Shown here piece after piece: positions 15,403 to 56,076 of a stretch of 64,000 nt of DNA (its first letter is position 1; each line of letters begins with the position of its first letter). The stretch is from an uncultured Bacillota bacterium. Lineage in GTDB: Bacteria > Bacillota > DTU025 > MWDF01. The stretch is from NCBI GenBank assembly GCA_963823655.1, contig CAWGMK010000013.1:160001-224000 (forward strand), in the 5' to 3' direction. The position numbers were made by a program, and so were the translations under genes. The notes beneath the pieces are model-generated. The model had not been told where the DNA came from and ran no database searches. It saw only the letters and a list, made by a program, of their open reading frames with translations.

Positions 15403-15407
15403 TACAA

Positions 15408-15436: not shown

Positions 15437-15512
15437 TATATCTCTAAGCAGGAATGCGGATTATTTTATAGAAGTCATTAATGGTAAATCAATTATACGA
15501 GGGGGCTTTAGC

Positions 15513-24740: not shown

Positions 24741-25619
24741 TTGAACTTACAGGAGCTGATTTTCAAACTGGAGACTTACTGGGCCTCAAAGGGCTGCATG
24801 ATAATCCAGCCTTACGTGCTTGAGGTAGGTGCGGGGACAATGAGCCCACACACTTTCCTGCGCGTCCTGGGCCCTGAGCCCTGGAACGCGGCATATGTTC
24901 AGCCTTCAAGAAGGCCGGCGGACGGGCGGTATGGGGAGAATCCTAACAGGTTGTTTCAGCATCACCAGTACCAGGTGGTCTTGAAGCCCAGTCCTGATGG
25001 AGTGCAGGAGATGTATCTTGATAGCCTGAAAGCGATTGGATTCGATCCTGCCGAGCATGATATCAGATTTGTAGAGGACAATTGGGAGGCGCCAACCCTT
25101 GGCGCATGGGGAACCGGCTGGGAAGTTTGGCTAGACGGCATGGAGATAACCCAGTTCACATACTTCCAGCAGGTGGGCGGTTTGGATACGAAACCCGTCC
25201 CTGCAGAGATTACATACGGCCTTGAGCGTATCGCGATGTATGTGCAGGGCGTCGACAATGTGTATGAGCTGGAATGGGCCCCCGGAATCAAGTACGGAGA
25301 GGTCTATAAAGCGGCGGAGTTCGAGTACTCAAAGTTCGCTTTCGAGGCTGCCGATACAGAGCACCTGAAGGCCGATTTCGAGGCGAATGAGGTTCAGGCC
25401 AGGAGGCTTCTGGATATGGGGCTCGTGCAGCCCGGATATGATCACGTGCTCAAGTGTTCACACAGCTTCAACCTTATGGACGCAAGGGGCGCGTTCGGAG
25501 CATCACAGCGCGCAGCCTATATGGGAAGGGTAAGGAATTTGGCGAAGAAGGCTGCGTCGGCGTGGCTTAAGAAGCGCGAGGAGCTTGGCTTCCCGCTCCT
25601 GAACGGAGGTGCGAAGTAA
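24741..25619 (+). CDS. glyQ: Glycine-tRNA ligase alpha subunit
   Basis: [45 protein letters not shown]. Confidence 0.98.
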
Positions 25620-27731: not shown

Positions 27732-27756
27732 ACACAGTTAAATAAGGGAAATGAGA

Positions 27757-27791
27757 AGCGGGGGCGATAAGGCCCCCGTTTTCGCTATTTT
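27757..27791 (+). terminator. Terminator after glyS
   Basis: GCGGGGGC-GATAAG-GCCCCCGT followed by T-rich sequence. Confidence 0.75.
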
Positions 27792-28073
27792 GTTAATATA
27801 TGTAAAAGCCAGCCAACTAACTAATCCGATAAAGTAAATATATCTTTGCAGGAGTTTAGCGAAATTAGAAGAAGATAATATCTAAGAAAATACGTAAGGG
27901 AAAGGCATCGCGGAAGGGATGCTGAATTTTGCGTATAGGCAGAGCGCATATATAGTGGCGTTTAGCAGCGAGATCATCCCAATAATAGAAAACCGAGAGG
28001 AGGGCTGCTTGGAAACCGAAATGGATTACTTTAGACAGCTAGTAGATACTCTTCAGAAAGGAGAGGGTAGAAC

Positions 28074-31000
28074 TTGAAAACAAAGTGGTTAAGATTATCT
28101 TTAGTCGTTAGCATTGTGCTTGCCATGGCATTCGCAGTTAGTGCCTCGCCAAGCCAACCTGGACTGCCTTTTACGATGGACGGGGACACTGGAGCAATTA
28201 CGTGGTATCCAGCAACAGCAGCTTTTCCGATTTATATACCACTGCCTCCACTGCCTCCTATTCCGGTCCCAAATTTCGTAGATTACTATTCTTGGCAGCT
28301 ATATTTGAATGGGGCGTTAGCCTCATTAACACAGAGGGCCAATACATCACTGCCGCCAGCGGCGACTTTCGATGGGACTATTTGGACTGACGACCTAGAC
28401 AATGGAATTGCGGGCACGGTCACTCCACTTGGCCCTGGGCATTATGACCTCGCTATCTACGCTGTAGATGTAGAGGATATGCCCACACCTAACTCGCTGA
28501 CACAGACCCAGCATTTCACCATTCTTCCTTTGACGCCTACCGTAGCGGCTGTGGAGGAAGTCTGGAATCCAGATGGCACATACCATATAACATGGAGCGT
28601 GCAGCCTGGAGTTGAGAGCGCCTATGTCGAATGGACAGTAAACGGTGTTCCATACAACAGCGGATGGATTGCAAACTCCGGCGCATATGATACTGGTGCG
28701 ATAGATCCATTGTATTTCTGGGATGCCAACAGCATTTCGGTAATTGTTAGAGATACCGAATCAATGCTGTCGAGCCTTCCAGGTACAACGACAATCAATG
28801 CAACCCCTTGGGCACCCGAAACAGTTACGCTTAATGTTACGGGGGCACCAGACTGGGTGATTAACTATTCATATGCAGCTCCGGGAGTAGACCCTGATTA
28901 CTTCGAATGGAGACTGTACGGATCATACTATGGCTATGCTATAGGATATATAACTCAGGGAATAGAAGACGGAGATAAGAACTTCGCTATTGACTTTAAT
29001 CCAGTTGATGACTCGACCTTGAGCAATATCTATGAAACGGAAAATGCCCATTATTGGACAATGACTGTACAAGCCTTTGCGCCCGATGATGGAGAAGCCG
29101 GAGGCTCAAATTCAGCCAGTCCTTACGGCATACCTTACGGGACTCCATCGATAGTGGCAAATGTAACCTTAGACCCGGATGCAAATCCGTGGGTATTTAC
29201 CGTTACCTATCATGACGATTATAACGATTATGCCTGGGGCATTAAAGGACCTACGGGTTACATCAATAATGTATGGCTACGCTTCATCTATGATGGAAGT
29301 ATCTTTACTGAAAATGAATTCCCTACTATGGTTCCTTTGGCAACGGGCGAGATACAGCTTACCGTAAACCCGGGAGCTGATTTATCGAATCCGAATTTCG
29401 TCAATAAATACAATGACTGGAGCGTTGAGGCGACTCCACGGGTATACTGCCCAACCACTGCCATGCATGAAATGGGAATGACGAGCATGGCCTTCGAGAC
29501 TGTATGCCCGCCGTTCGCTGCTCCGGCACCTGGTGCAACGTATTACGGCGCCTACCCGCCTGGAACGCAGGTACCTGAATATGTAGTAGGACCTTATCCG
29601 TCTGGCGGACCGGTACCTAATACATTTGAGCAGGGCGTAACTAGCGGATTGTCGCTTACGACTGCATGGCAGTTGCCTGCGAAACCGTTAACCTATTATG
29701 GGAACGACTTATACCTGCAATCGTTTGTTGAATACCAAGACTCAACAGCATTTGCAGGGCCATATTCGCTCTTCTCACAACATGATGTACCGTGGGATAA
29801 TGATACTCACTCCCGCGTATTCGGTACACCCCCAGCGTCAGTGACTTTCTATAAAGCGATAGTCAACATGCAGTACAACAACTTCGGAGATGCCTTGGGC
29901 GGAGGCTCGGGCTCATTTGAAGATGTATCGCCTGATGCTGAAATCGACAACTGGGAAGTCGATGACCTTAATCCAGATCCGGCAACCGCGAAGACGATGG
30001 TGGAAGAGCCGATTACTGAAGCATTCGGCAACCCATGGACTTTCACTTTCGTAGCGCCGCTGACGCCTGACTTCGACGAGTGGCAGGCTTTCCTCAGGGA
30101 GATGACATTTGGGCCGGCAATAACGGTATCGCCTTGGACCCTCTCATATCCTGGGGCGTTAGTCACTTGGACCGTGGATCAGGCGACTTTCGAATCCGAC
30201 ATCACACCGTTCCTGCCGTTCGGAGATCCTTTCGGCTGGTACAGGTTCGGTGTGCGCACCAGCGATAATACAGTGCCGTCAGATAACGACTTCATGGATG
30301 GCAACAATATGGATCCGCTGGTGTTCGAATACACTCTGTACGATGCCCTAGGCAAGATAACCGACCTAGACAAGCTTGCGGGCAGCGTCAGCATAGAGAT
30401 GCTTACTGCAGAGAGGGTAAGAGCAAGCTGGAGGGCCGTAGACCATAAGCCTTTCGGAGTGTTCCTCACCAACATACATTACAAAGCACAACTTCAGTAC
30501 TTAGACCCCAATCTCGGAGCATGGATAGCTGTCGATGAGACAGACTTCATCTATCCCTACACACCGGGTCCTGGAGTGCATCTAACAGACCCAGTAATGC
30601 ACGCTGAATTCTGCGCCGGAGACTATGATTATCCTGCAGGCGATTACAGAGTAAAGGTGTATTACGGCTATGAGATGCCTATGGGCGGCTGGTTGTATGA
30701 CGATGCCGGAAGCGCCATGAGCGATCAATTCGAAATTGAGTTCGAAGGATTCGCAATGGCGGCCCCGACTGCTGTCAATCCGGGCATGCTGACTGGTTTC
30801 TCATGGGTCAGCCCTGACTTAGACCTAGCTAATGAACCTCATATAATGGAATATCAGGTTGAGGTTTATGGGGCAAACGGGCTTGAACATGACGAAACAC
30901 TCTCAGGAGAGACTATGAACCTCGCATTTGATCCTGCTGCATGGTGGCCGCACGGTAACGTGTACTCCACCTATAGGGCAAGGGTAAGGGCTGTTGACAG

Positions 31001-34000
31001 CCTCGGCAGAACAGGAGATTGGAGCCCGCTTAGCGCAGAAGGCAACTTCCCACTACCTCTCATTAGTGCGTATTTGTTCGATGTGAGGCATGCTGATGGA
31101 AGTATTGCCAATCCGAGCACACCTATGACCGACAGGGAGCTGCGAGTGACATTCGGAAAATTCGATGTCGCTCCAGCAGGATTCATCAACTGGGATCCCA
31201 ATAAGGTAACATTCGATCTACAGGTTGATGTTTCGATCCCGCTGGAAAGGTGGTATTACGCTCTACTGCAGAACCAGTTCATAGAAGAAGGACACGTTGT
31301 ACCAGTAGGAGTAGAAGACTATGTAAAGGATTACATGTTCTACTTCAGACCGCTCTACGATGGTGTCCCGATGATGTCTGCATGGTCACAAAAGGGTCCG
31401 TTTACAATCGACCTTCAAGGACCAGCAGCACCTACAGGTCTTGGCGTAACAGTCAATCCTGTTACTGCAGGACCGACCTTTGATTGGGACTTCAACTGGA
31501 ATGACATGGCTACGGCAACTACCTATGATCTGACGATCAACAGGTTGTCTGCTGCAGGCGGAGCAGTTGATGCTACCCATATAGCGAAGGGCCTTACCGT
31601 ATCTGAGCTGCTGAACTTCAGTCCCGCGACTTACTTCAGCGACAGAGTATACGGCTTCTACAACTGCTCAGTAGTAGCATATGACTCGCTAGGCAACGCA
31701 AGCCTACCTGCAACGGCGACGTTCTCTCAAGGACTGCCGAGCCTTAACGTCAGCACAGTGACGGCAAGCTCAACGCAGATCTCATGGGCTACGTCAATCG
31801 AAAGGGTATCCTACGATGTCAAGCTAGTCGGAGACAACGGTCTCGAGTATGAGTGGGAGAATCTGACCACCTCGCCTCTGGCAATAAACCTCGCAACGCT
31901 ATTCGCAGGCCAAAATGTTTACACTAAGTGGGTAGCGTATGTAAGGGCTTATGACAGGGACGGAAATGTCGGAGACTGGTACTCCGGCACGTTCACACTC
32001 AGTCTGCCTAACTTTACAGGCCTGACTTTTGAAGTCTATAAGTCAGACAGCACAGTCGCACCAGTTTCCCCCACGAAGATGATCGATAGGGAGCTGTTCG
32101 TAAGGTGGGCGGAATACAATACAGTACCAGCAGGCTTTATCAACTGGGATAAGAGCAAGGTAACATTCCAGCTGAAGGGCCAGCTCAGCATCGACTCGAC
32201 AAGGACTCTCGACGTAGTTGAGATCAACAACGGCGAGACCAGCGTTCTTGTGCCCGTCGGAGAAGCAGGCAAGGAGATCGGATACACCTTCACCGTGGAT
32301 ATGTTCTACGACGGAGTACTCGTAACCCAGTCGGCAATATTGTCCAAGGGCGTCTATGTAATAGACCTCAAGGCACCGACTGCTGCAAGTCCCAATGCAC
32401 CAACAATTGACAGAGCAGGAGCGCCGACCTCATACAAGGTGAACTTTATGTGGTCGACCGCATCTGACCCTGTGAACTATGACGTTATAGTAAACAGGCT
32501 GTCTAATGTAAGCGGAGCAGTTGACGCGACTTATGTACAGACAAATGTCACAACGCCTTATCTGTCGAACTTCGAGCTTACGACTCACTTCGGCGACAGG
32601 GTATTCGGTGACTATGAATTCATGGTAGTAAGCCGCGACTCGATGGGCAACACAAGCACATCAAGTAAAGTTGCGTTCTCGGTACCAGCACCCGCCAAGA
32701 CAATAAGCAGCGTAACGCTTACACAGACGCTGCTGTCTTGGAGCGCTGCAGCCGAAGCAGTGAAATATGATATGTGGATAATGAGCGACAATGGACTAGA
32801 GTTCATCTGGCAGAATTACACAGGAACAAGCGTGGCCATAGACCTTGCAATCCTGTTCCCAGGCAAGAACGTGTACACCAGGTGGACGGCTCGCGTCAGG
32901 GCGTACGACAGGGACGGCAATGCAGGCCTATGGTACAGCAATGTAGCAACCTTCGGACTTCCTAACTTCTCGGCTCTGAGCTTTGAGGTTTACAAGTTCG
33001 ACGGAAGCGTCGCACCTGTATCGCCGACCAAGATGAACGTCAGAGACCTCTTCGTGAAGTGGGCTGAGTATAACTCGATGCCTGCCGGCTTCATCAACTG
33101 GGACAAGACGAAGGTCACGTTCCAGCTGAAGGCGCAACTAAGCATCGACTCAACTCAGTCTATCGACGTAGTAGGTATCAACAACGGAGAAACCAATGTA
33201 CAAGTACCTGTCGGCGAGGTCGGCAAGGAGATAGGTTACAGCTTCACGGTAGACATGTTCTACGATGGGGTGAAAGTAACGCAGGTATCTCCAGTGACCA
33301 AGCAGACATATGTAATCGACCTGAAGGCACCAGGGGTACCTACAGGCCTAGTACATAACATAGCGGTTGCTCCGTGGACATTCAGCTGGGTCAATGGCGG
33401 AGGCGCGGACACAACAGGTTATGTGTTCGAGCTTCAGAAGAGGGATCCAGTAACAGGCCTAGTTATAAACGACTACACCCTCGACCTTACGGGTACGAGC
33501 ACGACAGTCAATCCTCTTGAGCTCAACTGGAGCGTGTTCGGATCATACTGGTGGAGAGTAAGCGCTTATGACCAGTTCAGAAATCTCAGCTCCTCTGGAT
33601 GGGTGAGCTTCGTTTACACCCTGAACAGCGCAATAGCGCCTTGGAGCATGAATTATGAGCTGGTAGGCGAAGAGAACAGCATCTGGGATTTCATTCTCGA
33701 ATTCTCCAACAAGAGGACGGCCCTATTCAGCTGGTCAGTACCTAGCGTACCAGTGATAGGCCTCGATATGGAGCAGGTCGATTACGTATTCGAGCTGCAG
33801 AAGTCAACTGGCGCAGGGTGGGTAAATGTTAAGGAATACTCACTCACTTGGAACCCGACTTACATGGAATCTGAAGTCACGGTCGGCATCACCGACGAGA
33901 CGACATATTACAGAGGCCGTGTGAGAGCCGAGTACCAGACTGAGCAGACAGGCTGGATCTACTCTAATGTGTTTGCTATCGACTTGGAGAGGCCAGAGTT

Positions 34001-34781
34001 CATAGAAGGAGCCGAGGCGCCGAGTTACAGCAGCACAGACGAGGAGTATCCGAGCTGGCTGTTCACATGGGACATAGCGACAGATGAGGAAGTAGGCCTA
34101 GGAGGGTTCCTGTTCGTACTAGAAAGGCTGGAAGGCGACACGACTCACGCGATAGCGATGATCGACCTGCCAGTAGAGTATGAAGAGCCCGAAGACGACA
34201 GCATAGGAGCCTACAGCTTCGGCTTCGAGGAAGGCAAGTACCTGTTGGAGATGGATCCGTTCGAGTACGTAGAGACGATCGACGGCATCTTCCGCTACAC
34301 GGTAATACCTTACGACAGGCTGGAGAACCTCGGCGGCCCGATAGCAGGGGAGTTCACGTCGGTATGGTCCGGCGGGGGCAACTACGGCACATACCCGTTC
34401 ATCAACCTGTATGACAACTGGATGGGTGAGAAGCAGCTAATCGGGACAGTGAACAACAACACGTACGCGACGATAAGCTTCGACATCTTCGGCCTGGAGG
34501 GCTACACGCTGGAGTTCAGGCTCAACGGGACACTGCTTGTAGAGGGCACAGACTTCAGGCTGATAGACTCGCCGTACGGAAGCGACCTGTACTACCTGGT
34601 ACTGCTTGAAAGCGTACGCGACATGATACAAGCGGACGACATGGGCGAGCTTGAGATCTACGCATACGTAGAAGAGGACGACATAGTAGTGCAGTTCACG
34701 GTTGATGCGTTCAGTTACATCTACCTGAACCAGAGGACAGGGTTCGGCTTCGGCCGTTTCCGCCCTGCCCTTAATGACTAG
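28074..34781 (+). CDS. Giant secreted protein 1 (2235 aa): unique ~900-aa N-region, 3 three-domain Fn3/Ig-like modules, conserved C-terminus ending GFGFGRFRPALND
   Basis: Uninterrupted ORF, Sec signal peptide (..AMAFAVSA), repeated NVY..W.A.VRAYDRDG / GFINWD..KVTF / YDG...IDL..P motifs with ~955-bp period. Confidence 0.9.
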   Translation: MKTKWLRLSLVVSIVLAMAFAVSASPSQPGLPFTMDGDTGAITWYPATAAFPIYIPLPPLPPIPVPNFVDYYSWQLYLNGALASLTQRANTSLPPAATFDGTIWTDDLDNGIAGTVTPLGPGHYDLAIYAVDVEDMPTPNSLTQTQHFTILPLTPTVAAVEEVWNPDGTYHITWSVQPGVESAYVEWTVNGVPYNSGWIANSGAYDTGAIDPLYFWDANSISVIVRDTESMLSSLPGTTTINATPWAPETVTLNVTGAPDWVINYSYAAPGVDPDYFEWRLYGSYYGYAIGYITQGIEDGDKNFAIDFNPVDDSTLSNIYETENAHYWTMTVQAFAPDDGEAGGSNSASPYGIPYGTPSIVANVTLDPDANPWVFTVTYHDDYNDYAWGIKGPTGYINNVWLRFIYDGSIFTENEFPTMVPLATGEIQLTVNPGADLSNPNFVNKYNDWSVEATPRVYCPTTAMHEMGMTSMAFETVCPPFAAPAPGATYYGAYPPGTQVPEYVVGPYPSGGPVPNTFEQGVTSGLSLTTAWQLPAKPLTYYGNDLYLQSFVEYQDSTAFAGPYSLFSQHDVPWDNDTHSRVFGTPPASVTFYKAIVNMQYNNFGDALGGGSGSFEDVSPDAEIDNWEVDDLNPDPATAKTMVEEPITEAFGNPWTFTFVAPLTPDFDEWQAFLREMTFGPAITVSPWTLSYPGALVTWTVDQATFESDITPFLPFGDPFGWYRFGVRTSDNTVPSDNDFMDGNNMDPLVFEYTLYDALGKITDLDKLAGSVSIEMLTAERVRASWRAVDHKPFGVFLTNIHYKAQLQYLDPNLGAWIAVDETDFIYPYTPGPGVHLTDPVMHAEFCAGDYDYPAGDYRVKVYYGYEMPMGGWLYDDAGSAMSDQFEIEFEGFAMAAPTAVNPGMLTGFSWVSPDLDLANEPHIMEYQVEVYGANGLEHDETLSGETMNLAFDPAAWWPHGNVYSTYRARVRAVDSLGRTGDWSPLSAEGNFPLPLISAYLFDVRHADGSIANPSTPMTDRELRVTFGKFDVAPAGFINWDPNKVTFDLQVDVSIPLERWYYALLQNQFIEEGHVVPVGVEDYVKDYMFYFRPLYDGVPMMSAWSQKGPFTIDLQGPAAPTGLGVTVNPVTAGPTFDWDFNWNDMATATTYDLTINRLSAAGGAVDATHIAKGLTVSELLNFSPATYFSDRVYGFYNCSVVAYDSLGNASLPATATFSQGLPSLNVSTVTASSTQISWATSIERVSYDVKLVGDNGLEYEWENLTTSPLAINLATLFAGQNVYTKWVAYVRAYDRDGNVGDWYSGTFTLSLPNFTGLTFEVYKSDSTVAPVSPTKMIDRELFVRWAEYNTVPAGFINWDKSKVTFQLKGQLSIDSTRTLDVVEINNGETSVLVPVGEAGKEIGYTFTVDMFYDGVLVTQSAILSKGVYVIDLKAPTAASPNAPTIDRAGAPTSYKVNFMWSTASDPVNYDVIVNRLSNVSGAVDATYVQTNVTTPYLSNFELTTHFGDRVFGDYEFMVVSRDSMGNTSTSSKVAFSVPAPAKTISSVTLTQTLLSWSAAAEAVKYDMWIMSDNGLEFIWQNYTGTSVAIDLAILFPGKNVYTRWTARVRAYDRDGNAGLWYSNVATFGLPNFSALSFEVYKFDGSVAPVSPTKMNVRDLFVKWAEYNSMPAGFINWDKTKVTFQLKAQLSIDSTQSIDVVGINNGETNVQVPVGEVGKEIGYSFTVDMFYDGVKVTQVSPVTKQTYVIDLKAPGVPTGLVHNIAVAPWTFSWVNGGGADTTGYVFELQKRDPVTGLVINDYTLDLTGTSTTVNPLELNWSVFGSYWWRVSAYDQFRNLSSSGWVSFVYTLNSAIAPWSMNYELVGEENSIWDFILEFSNKRTALFSWSVPSVPVIGLDMEQVDYVFELQKSTGAGWVNVKEYSLTWNPTYMESEVTVGITDETTYYRGRVRAEYQTEQTGWIYSNVFAIDLERPEFIEGAEAPSYSSTDEEYPSWLFTWDIATDEEVGLGGFLFVLERLEGDTTHAIAMIDLPVEYEEPEDDSIGAYSFGFEEGKYLLEMDPFEYVETIDGIFRYTVIPYDRLENLGGPIAGEFTSVWSGGGNYGTYPFINLYDNWMGEKQLIGTVNNNTYATISFDIFGLEGYTLEFRLNGTLLVEGTDFRLIDSPYGSDLYYLVLLESVRDMIQADDMGELEIYAYVEEDDIVVQFTVDAFSYIYLNQRTGFGFGRFRPALND

Positions 34782-35430
34782 CCGAGCGGCGGAACGTAAA
34801 GGAGGTAAAGAAGAATGAAAAAGACTCTTAGGGTTCTTGCCGCAGTCCTGGCGTTGATGATGCTAGTAGGAATGTCGGGCTGCATCAACGGCGAGTGGGA
34901 TGAGGCAGAGGCAGACCAGTCAGCGCGCGAGCTGCTTGAGGCATTCGTGGGAGCGATCGAAGGGTTCGACGTCGACACGATAGACTTCATGCTGGCGGAC
35001 GGGTTCCAGCTTGAGATCTACGAAGGGTTCGTACACACTCAGACAAAGAGCAGGGCGCAACTGATGGGCGAGCTGAATGCTGATGAGACCTACCAGCTGA
35101 CGCTAAGAAGCGAGGGTTATGTGATGGATCTGGCAACCACGGAGCTGATATGCAACGTGGAGCCGGACGAATTGCTGACGATGCCCGAGTACGAACAGGA
35201 CTTCGCGGTGGAAGAGCTGGCAGTGATGCTGGGCTTGGATCCGGTATGGGTATCCGACACAGGGAACATGAAGTTCACATTGGTGTGGGATGCGAGCGGC
35301 GAATACAAGATCTACCTGATGGAGATCTTCTTCGACGCAAATCCCGAGGAACTGGTACCGGAAGACTAGATCAAGCAAGCTGACCGAATAAACGAAGCAG
35401 GGGCCGCTCCTTCAATGGGGCGGCCCTTGC
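33971..35430 (+). repeat. 1460-bp direct repeat, copy 1 (copy 2 at 43413-44872, offset 9442)
   Basis: Manual comparison found 4 substitutions: 34082/43524, 34139/43581, 34477/43919 and 35264/44706. Confidence 0.95.
34815..35369 (+). CDS. Acidic lipoprotein, probable NTF2/SnoaL-like fold (copy 1)
   Basis: SD AAGGAGGT, lipobox MSG-C, pattern ARELLEAF...D......LADGF.L.....KSRAQL and terminal strands ..EYKI.. Confidence 0.85.
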   Translation: MKKTLRVLAAVLALMMLVGMSGCINGEWDEAEADQSARELLEAFVGAIEGFDVDTIDFMLADGFQLEIYEGFVHTQTKSRAQLMGELNADETYQLTLRSEGYVMDLATTELICNVEPDELLTMPEYEQDFAVEELAVMLGLDPVWVSDTGNMKFTLVWDASGEYKIYLMEIFFDANPEELVPED

Positions 35431-35434
35431 TTTG
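35396..35434 (+). terminator. Terminator of cassette 1
   Basis: GCAGGGGCCGCTCC-TTCAAT-GGGGCGGCCCTTGC followed by TTT. Confidence 0.8.
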
Positions 35435-35826
35435 ATCTATAGATGGCAACACCGAAACTGTCATTATTTGAATACGTATAATAGAACATGGTACATATGG
35501 CAAATATATATATCATAGATGGAACTATTGGCATAACCAAGGATATCAGGCAAATAAACAGAAAAGCTAAGAAGGATAACGCTGTTATTGGCAGTATATA
35601 TTAAGTTGGATAAATGTGTAGATTGTTTTATTCGCAAAGCATGCAGAAAAGCTTTTTATAGAGGGAAAGGAAGCTAAGAAAACTCTTAACAATGTATTGA
35701 AAAAAAGAAACGAAACAACAAGAGATGATACAGAATTTGAGGTTTAAAAAGAAATAGGAAAGGATCTGATATGAGAATGATAAATACCTCAAGAATTTGA
35801 AACCTAATAAAAAGGGAGGTAAGCGA

Positions 35827-38800
35827 ATGAGGCGAAGAAATTGGCGAAGTATGATTACAGCAGTTGCAGTTATTGCAATTGCCTTATTTGTGGCAATACC
35901 GGCATCGGCCGCTGTGAGCAATCTTTCAATTAATACAACCAACGGATCAATAAGCTGGGCCCCCGACGCACAAAACTTTGATCCCCTTCCCCTTGCTGAT
36001 CCGTATGGGCGATATTACATACTGGATTATGAGTGGGAATTCACACAATGGGGAGGTCTTAATCTTTCAGGGAATACGGTGGGAACGTTAATAGGAGGTG
36101 ACTACTATAGCAGCTCATATCCAGGGCTGATATCGGTTGATTTACCGGGGACCTCTGGGCCATTACCTTACGGAATATATCATTTAAGAGTACGGCCCGA
36201 TATTTTAAGATTGCTGATTCCTGATCATGATTGGGTAGAGTACACATTATTATATACGGAGGACGTAAGCGGACCTCGCATGATATCAGTGGGCATGTCA
36301 GGCACTTCGACAGGTGCTACTATCAACTGGACTGCGGAAGCGGGAGCAGAGAGGTTTGAAGTAGCGCTAATGGGCACAAATGGCCTTGAGAGAAAATGGA
36401 TAAACGTAACAACAACTGGGATCTCTTTCGTTTGGTCAACGGCCTTTCCCGGGCAAAATGTCTATACTGGCTGGACGGCTTTTGTAAGGGCCTATAATAG
36501 CGATGGTGTCGATGGCCCATGGATGCAGGCTTCTCCGTCCTTTACACTAGCATTGCCAGAAGTTGTTCCGCTAGACTTCACTGTGTCAGATGTCTTTGGG
36601 AGTGCCTTGACGACCGGCACCAGGACAAATATCAGAGAAGTCTTAGTAGAATGGCCACAGTATACAGCGCCAAATATTACAAATTTCGATCCAAACCTTA
36701 TTACCTTTGAACTCATTGCTCAAATGAGTGGAGATTCTGCTGAGAAGTACGAGGTAACAGGAATAAATAATGGAACTACTAGCATAAATGTTCCAGTAGG
36801 CGAATTAGGAAAAGTGATCAGCTATCACTTCACTGTAGATGTATTTTACGATGGAGTAAAGCTATCAACTGTGATCGCGCCTGACAGCTTTGATCTAGTA
36901 ATTGATTTGAAAGGGCCTGCCGCCGTTACTCTTGACACGCCGCTTTTATATCGGCCCAATTATTTGTGGGATTTCAATTGGACAAGAGCCAGTGAAACTG
37001 ACCCACAATATGGGGCAGACTTTAAAATAGAAAGTGTCGAGGGGACTCTTGATGAAACAGTAGTTGGAACTTGGAGTCGCAGTTATAGTAATATTGCTTC
37101 TACTTTCGGCGTTGGAGTCGATCCGAGAGTGATTTTCGATAAGATATTTGGCAGATTTAGAGTGACAGTCACTCCGTTCGATTTATTAGGAAACAGGGGA
37201 ACTCCTGTAAGTCAAGTTTTCGCCTTCGACGCGCCTACTCTCTCTCCAACGATTACTTCATTCAATAGCATAGAAGTAGAGTGGACTTCTGCTACTGAAG
37301 CTGTAAGCTATGATGTGGAGATTAGGAGCGAGAACGGGCATTATACATGGCTTGCTCAGACAGATTTATCAGAATCAATAGATTGGGAAGCCCTATTCCC
37401 AGGCGCGAATGTTTACAAGCTCTGGAAAGCAAAGGTTCGCGCATATGATAGGGACGGCAATGTTGGAGCATGGAGCGCAGAAACAACATTCGACTTCCAA
37501 TTGCCGCAAATGACCACCTTCGCATACGATGTCCTGCATATAGACGGTGCAACTGCAAATATCAATGCGCCTATGACAGACAGGGAGTTGCTTGTAAGGT
37601 GGCCTATGCTGGCAAACGAGCCAGAGTTTATGGGTGAAGTTGACTTCCTCAATTGGGACTACAACAAAGTCACTTTCGACTTGGAAGTCGATATCGTTAG
37701 CAGCGAATCTCTGGCGAACGGCTCATCTTGGTACTATACCCTAATACAAAATCAATATGCCGTAGGGCATATTGTACCTGTAGGGATTGAAGGAGAAGAG
37801 ACTTCATACTCCTTCTGGATCAGGCCTCTTTATGATGGAGTTCCTCTCATGTACTGGGTTTCCGAGTACCCATATATTATTGACCTGAAGGGTCCTCTAG
37901 CTGTGAGCCTATCAGATGTAGCCCCTGTAAGGCCTCCGGCGGGTGCATACAGCTGGCCATTTGTGTGGGCTGCAGCTGAAGAGGAAGATAGCGCTACTCG
38001 CTATGACCTGATAATCGAAAGGCTGGAAGGCACGGATGGTACGGTTGACGCATCTGTGACGATCAGCGGCGAAACTCAGGGAGTTACAGTGAACCCTGAA
38101 GCGTACTTCGATTACATTTTCGGCAGGTTCAGATATACGGTAATACCTTATGACCTGTTAGGCAATGCAGGTATTCCCGTTAGCAAAGTATTTACATTTG
38201 CCGCGCCGACGCTCTCTCCTACGATAACGTCCTTTGATGAAGTGGATGTTACCTGGAGCGAAGCCGTCGAGGCTGTCTCATATGATGTCGAGATAAGAAG
38301 CGAAAACGGGCATCATCTATGGGAGGGTCAGACGGACCTTGTCGAGACTATTGACTGGGCAGTCCTATTCCCCGACTGCAACGTTTATAAGACCTGGCAG
38401 GCAAGAGTCAGGGCGCATGACAGGGATGGCAATATCGGGGCTTGGAGCGACTGGGTGGATGATCACTCCGAGTTCAACTTCCCGTTGCCGGTACAACCGG
38501 CCATGCCCTTAATCGTCAACACCAAATATAACGGACTTGCGCCTACTGATGGTACAGCAATTAATGATAGATACTTATTGGCGCTTTGGACTGGATTTAC
38601 GAGTATCTCTCCTTTGAACTTCATCAATTGGGACCTTAACAAAGTAACATACCAGCTAGACGTAATCCGTGTCCCAGGCATACCATTTATCCAAGTTGAG
38701 ATGAGGGATAGCGACCTCTCTCCCGATGGCTATCTGTTGCAGGTGGGAGAAGAGGGCGATGACGCCATGTACTACATTAGAGTACAGGCAATGTACGAAG

Positions 38801-41800
38801 GAGTCCCTCTTAGTGTGCTTTCGCAATATGGGCCTGTAATAGTGGACCTCAGAGGGCCAGAGCCTGTCTGGTTGGCCGATGTGGTCACTGCAAGGCCAAT
38901 ATACTCATGGGAATTCGATTGGGTGCCGTATGTTGAAGCTGATCCGGCCGTTAGCTATGACCTGATAATAGACAGGCTGGAGGCAGAGGACGGAACAATC
39001 GACGCAACAGTTAAGCTTCATCTTGTTGAAGAAATTACGGCCACGATAGATCCGACCGAGTATTTCGACTATATCTTCGGAACCTTCAAGTACTCGGTTA
39101 TCGGATATGACGCCTTGGGCAACGCGAGCGTACCCAGGGTTAAGGAGTTCACATTCCCAGCACCCGCGTTAACTGCAGCAATTAGCAGTTTCGACAGTAC
39201 TGCGGTGGCATGGAGTGCAGTAACCGAGGCCGTTAAGTACGATGTAGAGATAAGAAGCAACAACGGCTATCACATGTGGTATGGGCTTACCGCGACAAGC
39301 CAGGCGATAGACTGGGCCACGTTGTTCCCCGCAACCAACGTATACCAGGTATGGTCTGCAAGGGTAAGGGCATATGACGTTGATGGCAATGTGGGGACCT
39401 GGAGCGACTGGTATGAATTTAACTTCAGTCTGCCTCAGATAATGAATTATGATTTCAGCGTTTTGAAGCTCGACTTCACAGATGCACCAGCCATGGAACC
39501 TATGAACGACAGGCAGCTTCTGGTGAGGTTCCAAAAGATGGCAAGCGGGCCTGAAGGTTTTATAAACTGGGATCCTGATCTGGTAACCTTCAGCCTGGAA
39601 GTTGATTGTGTATCAATGACGCAGCCTCTCGGCGGGTGGTGGACCGCATGGCATAACGTTACCCTCGCCAACCTCAATGCCAACTGGACAAACGGGCACA
39701 TCGTACCTGTTGGAATTGAGGACGATGTTGTAGCCCATGCATTCAGCCTCAAGGTTCTTTACGATGATCAGCCGATGAGCGCTAGTTATACCGTTAAGGG
39801 CCCCTACTTCATAGATCTCAAGGGCCCCGGTGCTGCAGTCCTGGAAGAGGTGGAAACAAGCAGGCCTGATTACAACTGGCTGTTCGAATGGTCTGCACCG
39901 GAAGGGCCTATTGCCCCGCCTCCCGGACCGAATGGGATCAATAGTATCGGATCAGGCGCTATAGTCGCAGATGGCCCAGTAGCTCCATTCCTTTCTTTCG
40001 ATCCGGTAAAGTTCGACCTGGTCGTGAGAAGGCTTGAAGCATTGGACGGAACTGTAGATGCGGAGGTCTGGATCGAGATCCTCGCAGAAGAAGGACTTCC
40101 GCCCATGTTCTTCAACATGGATCCGGAATACTACTTCGACTACATATTCGGAAGCTTCGAGTACCAGGTGATATCCTATGACAACCTCGGCAATGCGAGC
40201 TATTCTGAATGGATGCCATTCACGTTCGCGGCGCCGGGCCTCACTACCGTAATAACATCATTTGACTCTGCCGCGGTGGCTTGGAGCTCTGCTTCCGAGG
40301 CTGTATCTTATGATGTGGAGATCAGAAGCGAGAACGGGCATCATACCTGGGAAGGCCAGACTGACCTGACAGAGGAAATTGACTGGGCGGCTCTCTTCCC
40401 GAACTGCAACGTGTATGTGACATGGCAGTCCAGGGTCAGAGCACACGACAGGGATGGGCATATTGGATTATGGAGCGAGTGGATAGACGTCAACTCACAG
40501 TTCATATTCCCGCTTCCAAAAATAAGCGAGTACCTATTTGATGTCCAGCACGTAAGCGGAACTGATGCTGCAGTTGGAGTTCCGATGAACGACAGGGAGC
40601 TTCTAGTACAATGGGATAGGTTCATTAATGCTCCGGAAGGATTTATAAACTGGGATCCAAACAAAGTAACATTCGATCTAGAGGTCGATAACGCGAGTAC
40701 CCAATGGTATTATGTGCTGGTCCAAAACCTGTGGCCTGTAGGGCATGTAGTGCCTGTGGGCGTGGATGGGACAGTGCAGGTCTATAAATTCTACCTAAGG
40801 CCGCTTTACGACGGCGTTCCTATGATGAGCGTATGGCAAGAGATGGGTTACTACATCATTGATTTGTTGGCACCCTTACAGGTGGACCTTAATGACGTAG
40901 TAACCGAAAGGCCCGACTATAGCTGGGCGTTCTCTTGGACGGCGGCCGTCGAAGATGATCCTGCAACAAGCTTCGACCTTATTATAGAAAGGCTTGAGGC
41001 GGCAGATGGAACGGTTGACGCAGCCGTTACATTCCACCAGACAGGACTAGCAAAGACGATTGATCCTGCGGATTACTTCGACTACATATTCGCAACCTTC
41101 AGGTACACCGTGATACCATACGATGCCCTAATGAACGCCGGTACTCCAGTTTCTAAGACGTTCGAATTCGCAGAGCCAGGGCTCGCAATGGGTGCGGTAA
41201 CACTAGTGGACACAGGCGCTTCATGGGGCAGCGTGGCTGAGGCCGTAAAGTACGACGTCCAGCTAAAGAGCGATAACGGAACCTACAGCTGGAACGATGT
41301 AACCGGCTTGAGCGTGGCCATAGACTGGGCGACGATGTTCCCCGGAGCCAATGTATACCAGACATGGCAGGCAAGGGTCAGGGCATACGATATGGACGGC
41401 AACTACGGCCTGTGGAGCGCATGGGCGAGTTACAGCAAGCCGTTCCCTGCAAATTCTGCAGTATCATTCAACGTGCTGCGCACAAGCGATGGCGCCGCTG
41501 CTCCCATCGGAGTTAACTTCAAAGAGGAAGCACTGCGGCTTACTTGGAGCCAGTACGCTATGCCTGCAGGGTTCATTAACTGGGATCCGGACCTCATTAC
41601 ATTCGAATTGGTTGCAACGGAATCAGTCGACGGATTGCCGGCGGTAATTACAGTTAAGCAGCTGATGGCAAACGTCGGAAGCCAGTCCGTTGAAATTGAG
41701 GTAGGAGTCCCGGGCGAGATTGCAACATACAAATTCAAGGTTAGGGCCTTCTACGACGGGGAACTCCTCAACGACGGCCTGGAAAGCTCCGCTTACTTGC

Positions 41801-44223
41801 TAGACCTAGAAGGTCCTTTCGCAGTTAGGCTGAATGCAGAAGTACTCGAAAGGCCGGTATACAGGTGGAGCTTCTCTTGGGCCAGGCCGGCTCAAACAGA
41901 TCCTGCAACCAGCTACGACCTAATAATCGACGAGCTGGAGTCAACAGGCACAGTAGTGGAAAGCTCACTGATATTCCACTTGGATGCCACCTCAAAGTCC
42001 ATATATCCTCAGGATCACTTCGACCAGATATTCGGATGGTTCAGATACACCGTGATACCATACGATGCTCTGGGCAACGCAGGCGATCCTGCAAGCATGA
42101 CGTTCCTATTCGAAAAACCTGCACTAACAATGGGTGCAGTTACCCTTAACGATACACGTATTGACTGGGACGATGTGATCGAAGCAGTTAAGTACGACGT
42201 AGAGCTAAAGAGCGACAACGGTACCTACAACTGGTATGGTGTAACCGCAACCGAAGTAATGATAAGCTGGGAGACGATGTTCCCGGGCGCAAACGTATAT
42301 CAGGTATGGCAGGCGAGGGTCAAGGCCTACGACAGGGACGGCAACTCGGGCCTGTGGAGCACATGGGCAAATTATGACAAGCTGTTCCCAGCAGTCAATC
42401 CGTTGACACCGAGCATATACCTGGGAAGCGATCCCGACACACATGCACCGTTAACTCCTATGAACGAGGACGAACTGTATGTGTGGTGGCCAATCATCGG
42501 CAAGCCGGCCGGGTTCTTGAACTGGGATCAGGATCTAATCAGCTACGAGCTCGTTGTGGGAGCAAGCAATGCGAACGGAGCAAGCTCGTTCAAGTACCAC
42601 ATCACCAACTATGAGCTCACCTCTGTGAGGGTTGATGTTGGGGTTCAGGGCTTGGTGACTTCATACAGCTTCCATTTGAACGTCTTCTACGACGGGGAGC
42701 TGTTACTAGCCGGGGACACATCCGCTGGTCCATACATAATCGATCTCAAGGCACCTGCAAATCCTAGCGCACTCAATGAAACAATAGCGGGCGTTAACTT
42801 GTGGAGATTCTGGTGGACAGCGCCTGCTGACTCTGATCTTGCAGGCTATATCTTCGAGCTGCAGAAGTACGATGCTCTAAACAACAAGTGGGCGCCGGCG
42901 TGCGCAAGCGATGAGATCGCTGCCGGCACCAATGAGACGTTCGTCGATCCTCTGATGCTCTATTGGAGCGTGTTCGGAAACTTCAGGTGGAGAGTCATGG
43001 CATATGACAACCTGGGTAACATGAGCGAAGGGGTTTGGGAATTCTTCGCATATACACTTGATGCAGCTCTTGCCCCAAGGACGGTTACTTACGAGCTGCT
43101 GGGCGAGCACAACACTCTCGACATGGGCATCGAATATGCAACGGCGGGTCAAGTAAGGTTCCATTGGAATACTCCTAGCGTTGCAATACCCGGTATCGAT
43201 ATGGGTATGGTGTTCTACAAGGTCGAACTCCTTGTAGGGACCGAAGACGACGGCATGGTGTGGGAGCCTGAGGTAACATACCTAATGCCATGGATACCGA
43301 GCGCAATGAAGGCGAAGTTCGATGTAGGCGAGAGCGGACTAACAAAGCACTACAAAGGACGAGTACAAGCGATATACCTGTCTGAATACAGCGCTTCTGT
43401 TCTGAGTGAAGAGTTTGCTATCGACTTGGAGAGGCCAGAGTTCATAGAAGGAGCCGAGGCGCCGAGTTACAGCAGCACAGACGAGGAGTATCCGAGCTGG
43501 CTGTTCACATGGGACATAGCGACGGATGAGGAAGTAGGCCTAGGAGGGTTCCTGTTCGTACTAGAAAGGCTGGAAGGCGATACGACTCACGCGATAGCGA
43601 TGATCGACCTGCCAGTAGAGTATGAAGAGCCCGAAGACGACAGCATAGGAGCCTACAGCTTCGGCTTCGAGGAAGGCAAGTACCTGTTGGAGATGGATCC
43701 GTTCGAGTACGTAGAGACGATCGACGGCATCTTCCGCTACACGGTAATACCTTACGACAGGCTGGAGAACCTCGGCGGCCCGATAGCAGGGGAGTTCACG
43801 TCGGTATGGTCCGGCGGGGGCAACTACGGCACATACCCGTTCATCAACCTGTATGACAACTGGATGGGTGAGAAGCAGCTAATCGGGACAGTGAACAACA
43901 ACACGTACGCGACGATAACCTTCGACATCTTCGGCCTGGAGGGCTACACGCTGGAGTTCAGGCTCAACGGGACACTGCTTGTAGAGGGCACAGACTTCAG
44001 GCTGATAGACTCGCCGTACGGAAGCGACCTGTACTACCTGGTACTGCTTGAAAGCGTACGCGACATGATACAAGCGGACGACATGGGCGAGCTTGAGATC
44101 TACGCATACGTAGAAGAGGACGACATAGTAGTGCAGTTCACGGTTGATGCGTTCAGTTACATCTACCTGAACCAGAGGACAGGGTTCGGCTTCGGCCGTT
44201 TCCGCCCTGCCCTTAATGACTAG
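35827..44223 (+). CDS. Giant secreted protein 2 (~2798 aa): 7 three-domain Fn3/Ig-like modules, same C-terminus as protein 1
   Basis: SD GGGAGGT, signal peptide ending IPASA, seven NVY..W...V(R/K)A motifs, uninterrupted ORF. Confidence 0.9.
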   Translation: MRRRNWRSMITAVAVIAIALFVAIPASAAVSNLSINTTNGSISWAPDAQNFDPLPLADPYGRYYILDYEWEFTQWGGLNLSGNTVGTLIGGDYYSSSYPGLISVDLPGTSGPLPYGIYHLRVRPDILRLLIPDHDWVEYTLLYTEDVSGPRMISVGMSGTSTGATINWTAEAGAERFEVALMGTNGLERKWINVTTTGISFVWSTAFPGQNVYTGWTAFVRAYNSDGVDGPWMQASPSFTLALPEVVPLDFTVSDVFGSALTTGTRTNIREVLVEWPQYTAPNITNFDPNLITFELIAQMSGDSAEKYEVTGINNGTTSINVPVGELGKVISYHFTVDVFYDGVKLSTVIAPDSFDLVIDLKGPAAVTLDTPLLYRPNYLWDFNWTRASETDPQYGADFKIESVEGTLDETVVGTWSRSYSNIASTFGVGVDPRVIFDKIFGRFRVTVTPFDLLGNRGTPVSQVFAFDAPTLSPTITSFNSIEVEWTSATEAVSYDVEIRSENGHYTWLAQTDLSESIDWEALFPGANVYKLWKAKVRAYDRDGNVGAWSAETTFDFQLPQMTTFAYDVLHIDGATANINAPMTDRELLVRWPMLANEPEFMGEVDFLNWDYNKVTFDLEVDIVSSESLANGSSWYYTLIQNQYAVGHIVPVGIEGEETSYSFWIRPLYDGVPLMYWVSEYPYIIDLKGPLAVSLSDVAPVRPPAGAYSWPFVWAAAEEEDSATRYDLIIERLEGTDGTVDASVTISGETQGVTVNPEAYFDYIFGRFRYTVIPYDLLGNAGIPVSKVFTFAAPTLSPTITSFDEVDVTWSEAVEAVSYDVEIRSENGHHLWEGQTDLVETIDWAVLFPDCNVYKTWQARVRAHDRDGNIGAWSDWVDDHSEFNFPLPVQPAMPLIVNTKYNGLAPTDGTAINDRYLLALWTGFTSISPLNFINWDLNKVTYQLDVIRVPGIPFIQVEMRDSDLSPDGYLLQVGEEGDDAMYYIRVQAMYEGVPLSVLSQYGPVIVDLRGPEPVWLADVVTARPIYSWEFDWVPYVEADPAVSYDLIIDRLEAEDGTIDATVKLHLVEEITATIDPTEYFDYIFGTFKYSVIGYDALGNASVPRVKEFTFPAPALTAAISSFDSTAVAWSAVTEAVKYDVEIRSNNGYHMWYGLTATSQAIDWATLFPATNVYQVWSARVRAYDVDGNVGTWSDWYEFNFSLPQIMNYDFSVLKLDFTDAPAMEPMNDRQLLVRFQKMASGPEGFINWDPDLVTFSLEVDCVSMTQPLGGWWTAWHNVTLANLNANWTNGHIVPVGIEDDVVAHAFSLKVLYDDQPMSASYTVKGPYFIDLKGPGAAVLEEVETSRPDYNWLFEWSAPEGPIAPPPGPNGINSIGSGAIVADGPVAPFLSFDPVKFDLVVRRLEALDGTVDAEVWIEILAEEGLPPMFFNMDPEYYFDYIFGSFEYQVISYDNLGNASYSEWMPFTFAAPGLTTVITSFDSAAVAWSSASEAVSYDVEIRSENGHHTWEGQTDLTEEIDWAALFPNCNVYVTWQSRVRAHDRDGHIGLWSEWIDVNSQFIFPLPKISEYLFDVQHVSGTDAAVGVPMNDRELLVQWDRFINAPEGFINWDPNKVTFDLEVDNASTQWYYVLVQNLWPVGHVVPVGVDGTVQVYKFYLRPLYDGVPMMSVWQEMGYYIIDLLAPLQVDLNDVVTERPDYSWAFSWTAAVEDDPATSFDLIIERLEAADGTVDAAVTFHQTGLAKTIDPADYFDYIFATFRYTVIPYDALMNAGTPVSKTFEFAEPGLAMGAVTLVDTGASWGSVAEAVKYDVQLKSDNGTYSWNDVTGLSVAIDWATMFPGANVYQTWQARVRAYDMDGNYGLWSAWASYSKPFPANSAVSFNVLRTSDGAAAPIGVNFKEEALRLTWSQYAMPAGFINWDPDLITFELVATESVDGLPAVITVKQLMANVGSQSVEIEVGVPGEIATYKFKVRAFYDGELLNDGLESSAYLLDLEGPFAVRLNAEVLERPVYRWSFSWARPAQTDPATSYDLIIDELESTGTVVESSLIFHLDATSKSIYPQDHFDQIFGWFRYTVIPYDALGNAGDPASMTFLFEKPALTMGAVTLNDTRIDWDDVIEAVKYDVELKSDNGTYNWYGVTATEVMISWETMFPGANVYQVWQARVKAYDRDGNSGLWSTWANYDKLFPAVNPLTPSIYLGSDPDTHAPLTPMNEDELYVWWPIIGKPAGFLNWDQDLISYELVVGASNANGASSFKYHITNYELTSVRVDVGVQGLVTSYSFHLNVFYDGELLLAGDTSAGPYIIDLKAPANPSALNETIAGVNLWRFWWTAPADSDLAGYIFELQKYDALNNKWAPACASDEIAAGTNETFVDPLMLYWSVFGNFRWRVMAYDNLGNMSEGVWEFFAYTLDAALAPRTVTYELLGEHNTLDMGIEYATAGQVRFHWNTPSVAIPGIDMGMVFYKVELLVGTEDDGMVWEPEVTYLMPWIPSAMKAKFDVGESGLTKHYKGRVQAIYLSEYSASVLSEEFAIDLERPEFIEGAEAPSYSSTDEEYPSWLFTWDIATDEEVGLGGFLFVLERLEGDTTHAIAMIDLPVEYEEPEDDSIGAYSFGFEEGKYLLEMDPFEYVETIDGIFRYTVIPYDRLENLGGPIAGEFTSVWSGGGNYGTYPFINLYDNWMGEKQLIGTVNNNTYATITFDIFGLEGYTLEFRLNGTLLVEGTDFRLIDSPYGSDLYYLVLLESVRDMIQADDMGELEIYAYVEEDDIVVQFTVDAFSYIYLNQRTGFGFGRFRPALND

Positions 44224-44872
44224 CCGAGCGGCGGAACGTAAAGGAGGTAAAGAAGAATGAAAAAGACTCTTAGGGTTCTTGCCGCAGTCCTGGCGTTGAT
44301 GATGCTAGTAGGAATGTCGGGCTGCATCAACGGCGAGTGGGATGAGGCAGAGGCAGACCAGTCAGCGCGCGAGCTGCTTGAGGCATTCGTGGGAGCGATC
44401 GAAGGGTTCGACGTCGACACGATAGACTTCATGCTGGCGGACGGGTTCCAGCTTGAGATCTACGAAGGGTTCGTACACACTCAGACAAAGAGCAGGGCGC
44501 AACTGATGGGCGAGCTGAATGCTGATGAGACCTACCAGCTGACGCTAAGAAGCGAGGGTTATGTGATGGATCTGGCAACCACGGAGCTGATATGCAACGT
44601 GGAGCCGGACGAATTGCTGACGATGCCCGAGTACGAACAGGACTTCGCGGTGGAAGAGCTGGCAGTGATGCTGGGCTTGGATCCGGTATGGGTATCCGAC
44701 ACAGGTAACATGAAGTTCACATTGGTGTGGGATGCGAGCGGCGAATACAAGATCTACCTGATGGAGATCTTCTTCGACGCAAATCCCGAGGAACTGGTAC
44801 CGGAAGACTAGATCAAGCAAGCTGACCGAATAAACGAAGCAGGGGCCGCTCCTTCAATGGGGCGGCCCTTGC
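43413..44872 (+). repeat. 1460-bp direct repeat, copy 2
   Basis: Near-identical to 33971-35430. Confidence 0.95.
44257..44811 (+). CDS. Acidic lipoprotein, probable NTF2/SnoaL-like fold (copy 2, identical protein)
   Basis: Same protein as 34815-35369, with one synonymous change. Confidence 0.85.
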   Translation: MKKTLRVLAAVLALMMLVGMSGCINGEWDEAEADQSARELLEAFVGAIEGFDVDTIDFMLADGFQLEIYEGFVHTQTKSRAQLMGELNADETYQLTLRSEGYVMDLATTELICNVEPDELLTMPEYEQDFAVEELAVMLGLDPVWVSDTGNMKFTLVWDASGEYKIYLMEIFFDANPEELVPED

Positions 44873-44876
44873 CTTA
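44838..44876 (+). terminator. Terminator of cassette 2, facing the convergent methylase gene
   Basis: Same hairpin as at 35396. Confidence 0.75.
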
Positions 44877-44910
44877 TATAGAATGCGTGAAATGGTGGGG
44901 CTAGTAGGGG

Positions 44911-54576: not shown

Positions 54577-56076
<1,500 letters not shown>

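Follow-up and report, generated by a model that had tools for sequence, protein, structure and literature searches.

Giant Sec-exported proteins and adjacent NTF2-like lipoproteins in uncultured Bacillota: a putative tail-in-pocket module of the envelope

Large surface proteins that carry a short C-terminal signal and whose cognate partner is encoded in the same genome are known from the LPXTG/sortase, PEP-CTERM/exosortase and type IX secretion system (T9SS; C-terminal domain/PorU) systems. LptD/LptE and Slam-type export are the comparison case for outer-membrane pairs made of a barrel and a lipoprotein. NTF2 binds FxFG peptide repeats. To our knowledge, diderm Firmicutes lack most of the classical Gram-negative secretion and anchoring machinery; they are almost entirely uncultured. 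In pilotins (PulS/OutS, AspS, with PulD/GspD), a small lipoprotein encoded with its client binds the extreme C-terminus of this client, and the lipid anchor sets the location (PMC3542185). The pilotin-secretin pair, as described there, is the nearest working analogue of the locus reported here; the likeness is in working principle only. This locus lies at positions 28074-44872 of the window, i.e. the whole stretch of 64,000 nucleotides that was analysed (G000:C13:160001-224000), from an uncultured Bacillota bacterium. G labels are genomes (G000, the host genome); C labels are contigs; f labels are families of the phylum. The locus comprises two same-strand cassettes, each made of a gene for a giant protein with a Sec signal, a 33-bp spacer with AAGGAGG, a gene for a 184-aa lipoprotein and a hairpin (Table 1). 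The initial annotation, made from the sequence, had given this layout (giant, 33 bp, 184-aa lipoprotein, terminator, twice) with identical lipoproteins; the open reading frames (ORFs), spacers and hairpins were located as it described, and the same 184-aa protein is encoded twice. A module of this kind would bear on the little-known ways in which diderm Firmicutes place very large proteins in their envelope.

The cassettes probably encode a tail-in-pocket module, in which a lipid-anchored NTF2-like receptor grips a C-terminal tag of the Sec-exported giant and so holds or pilots it. The giant would be exported by Sec through a cleavable N-terminal signal peptide; it is long and acidic, and its repeated modules are probably beta-sandwich domains. 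A conserved domain occupies the last ~100 residues and closes with a short basic-aromatic tail, R-x-G-F-G-F-G-R-[FLI]-R. The cavity of the lipoprotein (hydrophobic floor, rim of invariant acidic residues) is predicted to capture this tail: the two Phe would enter the pocket and the Arg would face E70, E86, D90, E134 and D148. The lipoprotein could be either a non-covalent anchor of the base of the giant at the membrane or a pilotin-like carrier to the outer membrane; the variable stalk would remain free. The link between the two proteins would be non-covalent, because the partner is by its fold a binding protein and not a transpeptidase. The module looks like an apparently undescribed way of holding or delivering very large envelope proteins.

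On alignment, the conserved element of the giants is the ~100-aa terminal domain that ends in this tail. The window giants end in ...QRTGFGFGRFRPALND; giants beside lipoprotein homologues in other genomes of the order end in ...ER[ST]GFGFGRLRPW. The columns R-x-G-F-G-F-G-R are invariant in two alignments of the last 115-135 aa (12/12 and 10/10 C-termini). A profile of the terminal domain, run with HMMER against 1,835,955,588 cluster representatives, gave 64 matches at E<=1e-3 (49 at <=1e-10, 36 at <=1e-30). The match sits at the extreme C-terminus. G[FY]GFG is found within the last 25 residues of 52 of these 64 proteins, with an Arg two residues before the motif in 52/52 and 4-12 residues after it; several of the other 12 are frameshifted ends, truncated fragments or matches to repeat domains only. 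Among the 22,220 ORFs of at least 50 aa in the host genome, the motif is limited to the two giants; for this reason, the tail was rejected as a general sorting signal of that genome. Word-indexed homologue searches returned close relatives on short contigs only (14 for the lipoprotein, 3 for the 269-aa C-terminus).

The tail and the lipoprotein gene occur together across the phylum. In the loci examined, 26/30 tail-bearing ORF ends have a same-strand match to the lipoprotein profile at -118 to +211 nt; four more adjacent pairs were recognised by coordinates (G014:C83:4484, G014:C228, G014:C38, G018:C149). In total, outside the host genome, a lipoprotein gene follows 30 of 34 tail-bearing gene ends on the same strand. 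These 30 pairs include 27 full-length lipoproteins and three truncated or split ones (G010:C41 middle cassette, G106:C136, G011:C21). The pair is present in at least nine families (f1, f2, f4, f47, f56, f62, f66, f98, f109), including in a complete 34%-GC genome (G213). The lipoprotein profile matches 13/21 genomes of the order and the tail-domain profile 10/21; in a sample of 401 genomes of the phylum, the lipoprotein was found in 26 and the tail domain in 14. Several lipoprotein-positive genomes encode giants that carry the tail on a more diverged terminal domain. A search with a 6-row lipoprotein alignment gave 5 loci, all from uncultured Firmicutes/Bacillota/Clostridia metagenome-assembled genomes.

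The 184-aa protein has, by its sequence, the lipobox of a bacterial lipoprotein ([LVI][ASTVI][GAS]C; Lgt/LspA substrate): it reads MKKTLRVLAAVLALMMLVGMSG-C in the window and L-[AS]-G-C in relatives, and none of the 16 sequences varies at G22 or C23. Its AlphaFold 2 (AF2) model (pLDDT 83, pTM 0.75) has an NTF2-like alpha+beta cone fold, with three helices on a curved sheet. Foldseek relates this model to NTF2-like or cystatin-like entries, including 2rfr, 3ejv and 2rgq (E ~1e-7, TM 0.68-0.76). The best VIA-align match is 8t6n_E (Z 16.9, rmsd 3.6 A, 139 aligned); NTF2 itself (1ar0_A) gives Z 13.1, rmsd 3.2 A and 124 aligned. The NTF2-like fold, which the initial annotation had guessed, is borne out by these fold comparisons. 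No NTF2-like sequence family (SnoaL, DUF4440, others) matched the lipoprotein in Pfam or NCBIfam at E<=0.1, nor did any family of PHROGs. The nearest clusters of the protein atlas, at 0.90-0.91, are clusters of Atribacterota named 'putative lipoprotein' and 'SnoaL-like'; these names are leads only. The cone-shaped alpha+beta fold with a cavity is shared with the NTF2-like superfamily (NTF2, SnoaL/ketosteroid-isomerase-like proteins, dioxygenase beta subunits, CaMKII hub). Unlike members of this superfamily, the protein is lipid-anchored, matches no sequence family, and has a protein tail rather than a small molecule as its predicted ligand.

For the complex prediction, the C-terminal 135 aa of the giant were folded together with residues 24-184 of the lipoprotein (its mature form), each with its own alignment. 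The ipSAE is 0.89, versus 0.00 for the best of three controls; the corresponding mark is reached by 116/157 solved complexes and 2/215 mismatched pairs, counts that are approximate, own alignments having been used here. Prediction runs agree in at least 84% of contacts, and the pLDDT of the partner is at least 83. The giant contributes residues 119-131 and 133 (NQRTGFGFGRFRP plus L133), i.e. the tail, to the interface. On the side of the lipoprotein, it includes 30 contact residues. Of the 23 positions that both families conserve, 13 belong to this set (expected 4.3; hypergeometric p ~9e-6): L66, I68, E70, K78, L83, E86, D90, Y102, V132, E134, W145, S147 and D148. This overlap is supportive and not independent proof, because any NTF2-like protein conserves its cavity. 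The residue lists, rather than coordinates, suggest that the three Arg of the tail pair with five acidic contact residues. The initial annotation had proposed that the C-terminus and the lipoprotein form a matched pair; both the gene adjacency (30/34) and the predicted interface (0.89 versus 0.00) support this, and the C-terminus matched no known anchor family. The pair differs from pilotins in several respects: the lipoprotein is NTF2-like, with no match to PulS_OutS or any other Pfam family; the client is a monomeric giant repeat protein without a secretin domain; the motif is Gly/Phe/Arg-rich; and the host is a diderm member of Bacillota.

This assignment of the host is made from its gene content: the genome is taken as diderm because it has BamA (Omp85/BamA match, 137 bits), which adjoins an LptD-like gene; SLH (S-layer homology) proteins are encoded elsewhere.

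A third gene often joins the pair in other families. The two-component scheme of the initial annotation is retained for the giant and the lipoprotein and refined on this point. Behind the lipoprotein gene, f56, f62, f66 and f109 have a gene for a 630-740-aa protein, in which a signal peptide precedes an Ig-like N-terminal domain and the long C-terminal part has a beta-barrel-like end (...EWVLAF, ...VWVRRF). In families other than that of the host genome, a gene for a ~500-aa outer-membrane barrel often flanks the pair. The barrel gene immediately follows the pair in G249, G152, G113, G219 (both loci), G300, G236, G199, G264 and G290; in G010 (f4), a gene for a 525-aa homologue ending in ...VRFRF (blastp 3.7e-11 to the f56 protein) is directly upstream of the cassettes. 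The homologue of the host genome (C6:82623-84248, 2.4e-20) is on another contig; its locus is syntenic with the G010 locus, without cassettes. Within the genus, the barrel gene is found in 4/4 pair carriers and is missing from two of the three non-carriers (G001, G003); a diverged copy is present in the third (G005). No Pfam family matches the barrel protein, and the best E of a PDB sequence search with the barrel profile is 0.78. Strict linkage to the pair was considered and rejected, three genomes (G005, G012, G013) having the barrel without the pair. Because the linkage is loose, the barrel protein is a candidate partner only. Where it is encoded beside the pair, as in most other lineages, it may be an outer-membrane dock or conduit. 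As in LptD/LptE and Slam, many lineages encode a large beta-barrel protein together with a small lipoprotein; unlike in these systems, the barrel family matches nothing in Pfam or among PDB sequences, is unlinked in the host genome and occurs without the pair, and a separate LptD-like gene is found beside BamA.

Two loci with barrel-like genes were noted. G000:C6:80198-86085, which shares synteny with the G010 cassette locus, has four outer-membrane-protein-like genes (products ending in ...RFLVNF, ...GLLIEF, ...GGYRF and ...GISFRL), then genes for a beta-eliminating lyase and a CarboxypepD_reg-like lipoprotein. In G213:C1 2409202-2412602, the pair is followed by a 455-aa barrel-like ORF ending in ...NYTYQF, then by an LptD-like protein (LptC and LptD_N matches).

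Several observations weigh against the proposed module. For four of the 34 tails, a lipoprotein gene could not be detected at E<=1e-3 (G010:C20, G014:C83:8581, G009:C39, which is frameshifted, and G019:C276, which has a lipoprotein fragment only), and for three others there is only a remnant. Lipoprotein genes are also found without a giant: behind a serine-hydrolase-like gene in G016:C117, and as a partial copy in G007:C55. The barrel gene is found without the pair in G012, G013 and G005 and is unlinked to it in the host genome. NTF2 cavities are conserved also for reasons of fold and ligand, and the binding is a matter of model confidence. Lastly, the lipoproteins of f2, f4, f47, f56 and f62 carry a linker and a GFGFG-like C-terminal tail of their own (e.g. 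...GFGFGTYTGW and ...GFGFGRLPMREGW). In the AF2 model of a sister-family lipoprotein (pLDDT 79), residues 196-213 and 217-222 of this tail are below pLDDT 50. The own tail might bind another copy of the lipoprotein, the barrel protein, or its own cavity until displaced.

Since some lipoproteins end in a GFGFG-like tail, both proteins could be read by a third factor. The tail would then be recognised by the barrel protein, BAM (the barrel assembly machinery) or a processing enzyme, and the lipoprotein would be a second substrate or an accessory rather than the receptor. This is unlikely. The lipoproteins of several families do bear such a tail; those of the window genus, f109 and f98 do not, and the pair is nevertheless kept there. 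Many tails end in an aromatic residue, like the beta-signals of barrels (...GRLRPW, ...GRFRF), but that of the window does not (...RPALND). The barrel gene often adjoins the pair but also occurs without it. In the host genome, the motif is found only in the two giants, and the complex prediction places the tail in the cavity of the lipoprotein, with controls at 0.00.

The predicted binding applies equally to a transient role, in which the lipoprotein would be a chaperone or cap masking an aggregation-prone or polymerising tail until the giants assemble into a fibre or layer, and would be absent from the final structure. The Gly/Phe-rich tail could pair with other tails, and lipoprotein remnants are found by intact giants (G010:C41 middle cassette, G106:C136), where one copy may serve several giants. 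A gene ratio near 1:1 and the 33-bp spacer suit a stoichiometric partner equally. Such a cap is considered unlikely; no present evidence separates it from stable anchoring.

The giants are strongly acidic, and their only hydrophobic segment is the N-terminal signal peptide. Giant 1 has about three super-repeats of ~315 aa after a unique N-terminal part of ~900 aa; giant 2 has about seven such repeats after its signal peptide. No Pfam, NCBIfam or PHROGs family matches them above cut-off. Their modules are probably beta-sandwich domains; an Ig/Fn3-like nature is hinted at only by sub-threshold Pfam matches (Ig_J, Big_3_3, DUF1510; E 0.0026-0.045) and by sister-family giants that match Big_13, fn3 and Ig_Rha78A_N above cut-off. 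The initial annotation had seen no LPXTG, SLH, C-terminal transmembrane helix, RTX repeat or autotransporter barrel, and the scans of motifs, hydropathy, Pfam and NCBIfam agree. LPxTG (LP.[TSA]G) and GGxGxD (RTX) are absent throughout the giants. The highest 19-residue hydropathy in their last 300 aa is 0.83. SLH (PF00395) has no match in the giants or the lipoprotein, and no Pfam or NCBIfam model of autotransporters, intimin or RTX/type I secretion system (T1SS) proteins matches the giants. No NCBIfam family of the catalogued C-terminal sorting domains (PEP-CTERM, GlyGly-CTERM, T9SS) is found in the window giants, which have no C-terminal hydrophobic segment; in the giants of relatives, NCBIfam matches are repeat domains only, none of them at the tail. 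The host genome has a single weak sortase match.

The giants resemble sortase, exosortase and T9SS substrates in having a short conserved signal at the very C-terminus of large proteins; they differ in the lack of LPxTG, of a transmembrane helix, of a basic stop-transfer tail and of any NCBIfam sorting model, and in a motif confined to two proteins of the host genome. They resemble giant Ig-like repeat adhesins (Big_13/fn3, RTX, intimin/invasin) in being very long acidic chains of repeated modules; they differ in having a Sec signal peptide and neither RTX repeats, a T1SS signal nor an autotransporter or intimin barrel. No Pfam, NCBIfam, PHROGs or PDB-sequence family was found that covers the tail, the lipoprotein or the barrel protein, and these three families appear to be uncatalogued. 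No description of the GFGFG tail or of NTF2-like lipoprotein partners of adhesins was found in open-access full text. The initial annotation had recognised no named system with this layout; none emerged from these searches, and the proteins do not qualify as members of pilotin, sortase, SLH or type V/RTX systems.

The two cassettes share a recently copied end. The duplicated segment recurs at an offset of 9442 with 4 mismatches over ~1460 bp (99.7% identity). The mismatch at 35264 is synonymous, as both lipoprotein genes encode an identical protein. Because this segment is duplicated, the giants share their last 269 aa, with a single S/T difference 101 residues from the end. Further upstream, residues 925-2235 of giant 1 and 1493-2798 of giant 2 are 51% identical; giant 2 has nothing related to the first ~900 aa of giant 1. 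From this comparison, the constant part of ~270 aa is the product of a recent duplication or gene conversion. The constant C-terminus of the initial annotation therefore stands as an observation (last ~270 aa shared, one S/T change) and falls as the matched element, which is the last ~100 aa and above all the 10-residue tail.

The duplication is judged not to be an assembly artefact, because the same tandem order is found in two other genomes of the genus (G004:C47 and G006:C137, where another giant again begins behind the lipoprotein gene) and because, in an independent DNA run, one contig parts from the window exactly at 33971. Multi-cassette loci are also present in G010, G009 and G020. Short-read contigs break within the repeat.

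The cassette region (from an edge at 27782-28074 to an edge at 44872-44911) is present or absent within the genus. Giants are found at the glyS-dam site in G000, G002, G004 and G006. In G002 and G006, an orthologue of giant 1 (44-45% identity) comes right after glyS; G004 shows the lipoprotein-dam-ppdK junction. In three of the seven species (G001, G003, G005), the site is empty and glyS is directly followed by dam-ppdK-dgt. From these empty sites and from the orthologue identity of 44-45%, the region is considered accessory and fast-evolving. The dam-like methyltransferase gene (44911-45909, minus strand) is not part of the module, because it is retained at empty sites.

This accessory distribution (3/7 species with an empty site), the weak sub-threshold matches to Ig_J (phage tail tip) and the neighbouring dam-like gene would suit a mobile-element or phage module (tail fibre and chaperone) whose tandem copy is an assembly artefact. 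That explanation is very improbable and largely refuted. The dam-like gene is present at empty sites too; neither the giants nor the lipoprotein match any family of PHROGs; signal peptides of the Sec or lipoprotein type are present in both proteins; the genes beside the cassettes include no phage, integrase or transposase gene; and the tandem order was found independently in G004 and G006, with multi-cassette loci in G010, G009 and G020.

If the tail-in-pocket module exists as proposed, the giants may be displayed at the cell surface, and envelope proteins would be tethered on a new principle, by a ten-residue tag and a lipoprotein receptor dedicated to it. The combination of tail, NTF2-like lipoprotein and barrel would be an annotation signature for giants now called "hypothetical". 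A small non-covalent tag-receptor pair could also serve surface display. That the cassettes are present in some species and absent from others, and that the stalks evolve fast, suggests a part in ecological interaction (adhesion, or target of phages or predators). More tentatively, and with some doubt, the pair and the barrel could form an unrecognised envelope pathway of diderm Bacillota: the tail would be an address tag captured non-covalently by the NTF2-like lipoprotein, which together with the barrel would move fibres of several thousand residues to the outer membrane and moor them there. This would add a secretion/anchoring class to sortase, exosortase, T9SS and pilotin systems.

Table 1. 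Features of the two cassettes and of their upstream border. Positions are those of the window; aa, amino acids.
Feature	Position	Strand	Remarks
Terminator-like hairpin after glyS	27755-27782	+	Upstream border of the inserted cassette region
Giant 1	28074-34781	+	TTG start; 2235 aa; Sec signal peptide ~residues 1-24 (...AVSA-SP)
Giant 1, conserved C-terminal domain (last ~115 aa)	34434-34778	+	Homologous to C-termini of giants in other families (alignments, genome scans, representative search)
Giant 1, tail NQRTGFGFGRFRPALND with invariant R-x-G-F-G-F-G-R	34728-34778	+	Predicted lipoprotein-binding peptide
Spacer 1, 33 bp, ribosome-binding site AAGGAGG	34782-34814	+	
Lipoprotein 1, 184 aa, lipobox MSG-C at Cys23, NTF2-like fold (model)	34815-35369	+	Predicted tail receptor
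Hairpin closing cassette 1 (terminator-like, weak T-run)	35394-35430	+	Duplicated segment ends here
Duplicated segment, copy 1 (giant 3' end, spacer, lipoprotein gene, hairpin)	33971-35430	+	
Giant 2	35827-44223	+	2798 aa; signal peptide ~residues 1-28
Giant 2, tail	44170-44220	+	Identical to giant 1 tail
Lipoprotein 2	44257-44811	+	Protein sequence identical to lipoprotein 1
Duplicated segment, copy 2	43413-44872	+	Ends with hairpin 44836-44872

The ORF of giant 2 opens at TTG 35797; the likely start is ATG 35827, behind a GGGAGG ribosome-binding site.

The cassettes are flanked by housekeeping genes: recO, glyQ and glyS before the cassettes; the dam-like gene, ppdK, dgt, dnaG and rpoD after them. 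Several of the housekeeping genes of the window are split or truncated. Here glyS (25619-27731) is in two overlapping frames; it is a single frame of 704-708 aa in five genomes of the same genus. The genes addB, addA and that of an FGGY kinase are each broken in two, and pyruvate kinase is represented by its C-terminal half alone (4808-7755, 7770-10947, 17865-18683, 54577-56076). This suggests indel errors of long-read assembly, or pseudogenes. Both giant ORFs are intact despite these splits.

Public sequencing runs give a hint of transcription. None of the 22 runs contains more than 14% of the sampled words; in the four runs compared with the window, the contigs, 90-99% alike, are those of relatives and give no expression level, transcript ends or strand. 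Over 28074-35430, such contigs come from runs labelled as soil, sediment, activated sludge and subsurface metagenomes; they cover this region unevenly, more of them falling on the duplicated 3' segment. In three RNA-library runs (two studies), contigs cover parts of the 3' half of giant 1 and the lipoprotein gene. One RNA-library contig of 567 nt, with 7 differences, spans 34727-35293, i.e. the stop codon of the giant, the spacer and most of the lipoprotein gene. As a sign of transcription across the junction it is weak evidence, because such libraries can contain DNA and contigs do not show single transcripts.

Other genes were noted beside cassettes or elsewhere in the window. In f4, a serine-hydrolase/beta-lactamase-like gene (by eye) lies between a degraded cassette and a further lipoprotein gene (G016:C117 1-1332, G019:C276 1559-2998). 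In G006:C137 (1519-2640), an ORF pair between the lipoprotein gene and the next giant resembles a group II intron reverse transcriptase (by eye). In the window, 15396-16709 encodes a 437-aa protein with DUF4412 and DUF2092 domains; DUF2092 is presumably LolA-like, in which case this product could be an envelope lipoprotein-handling factor of a diderm Firmicute.

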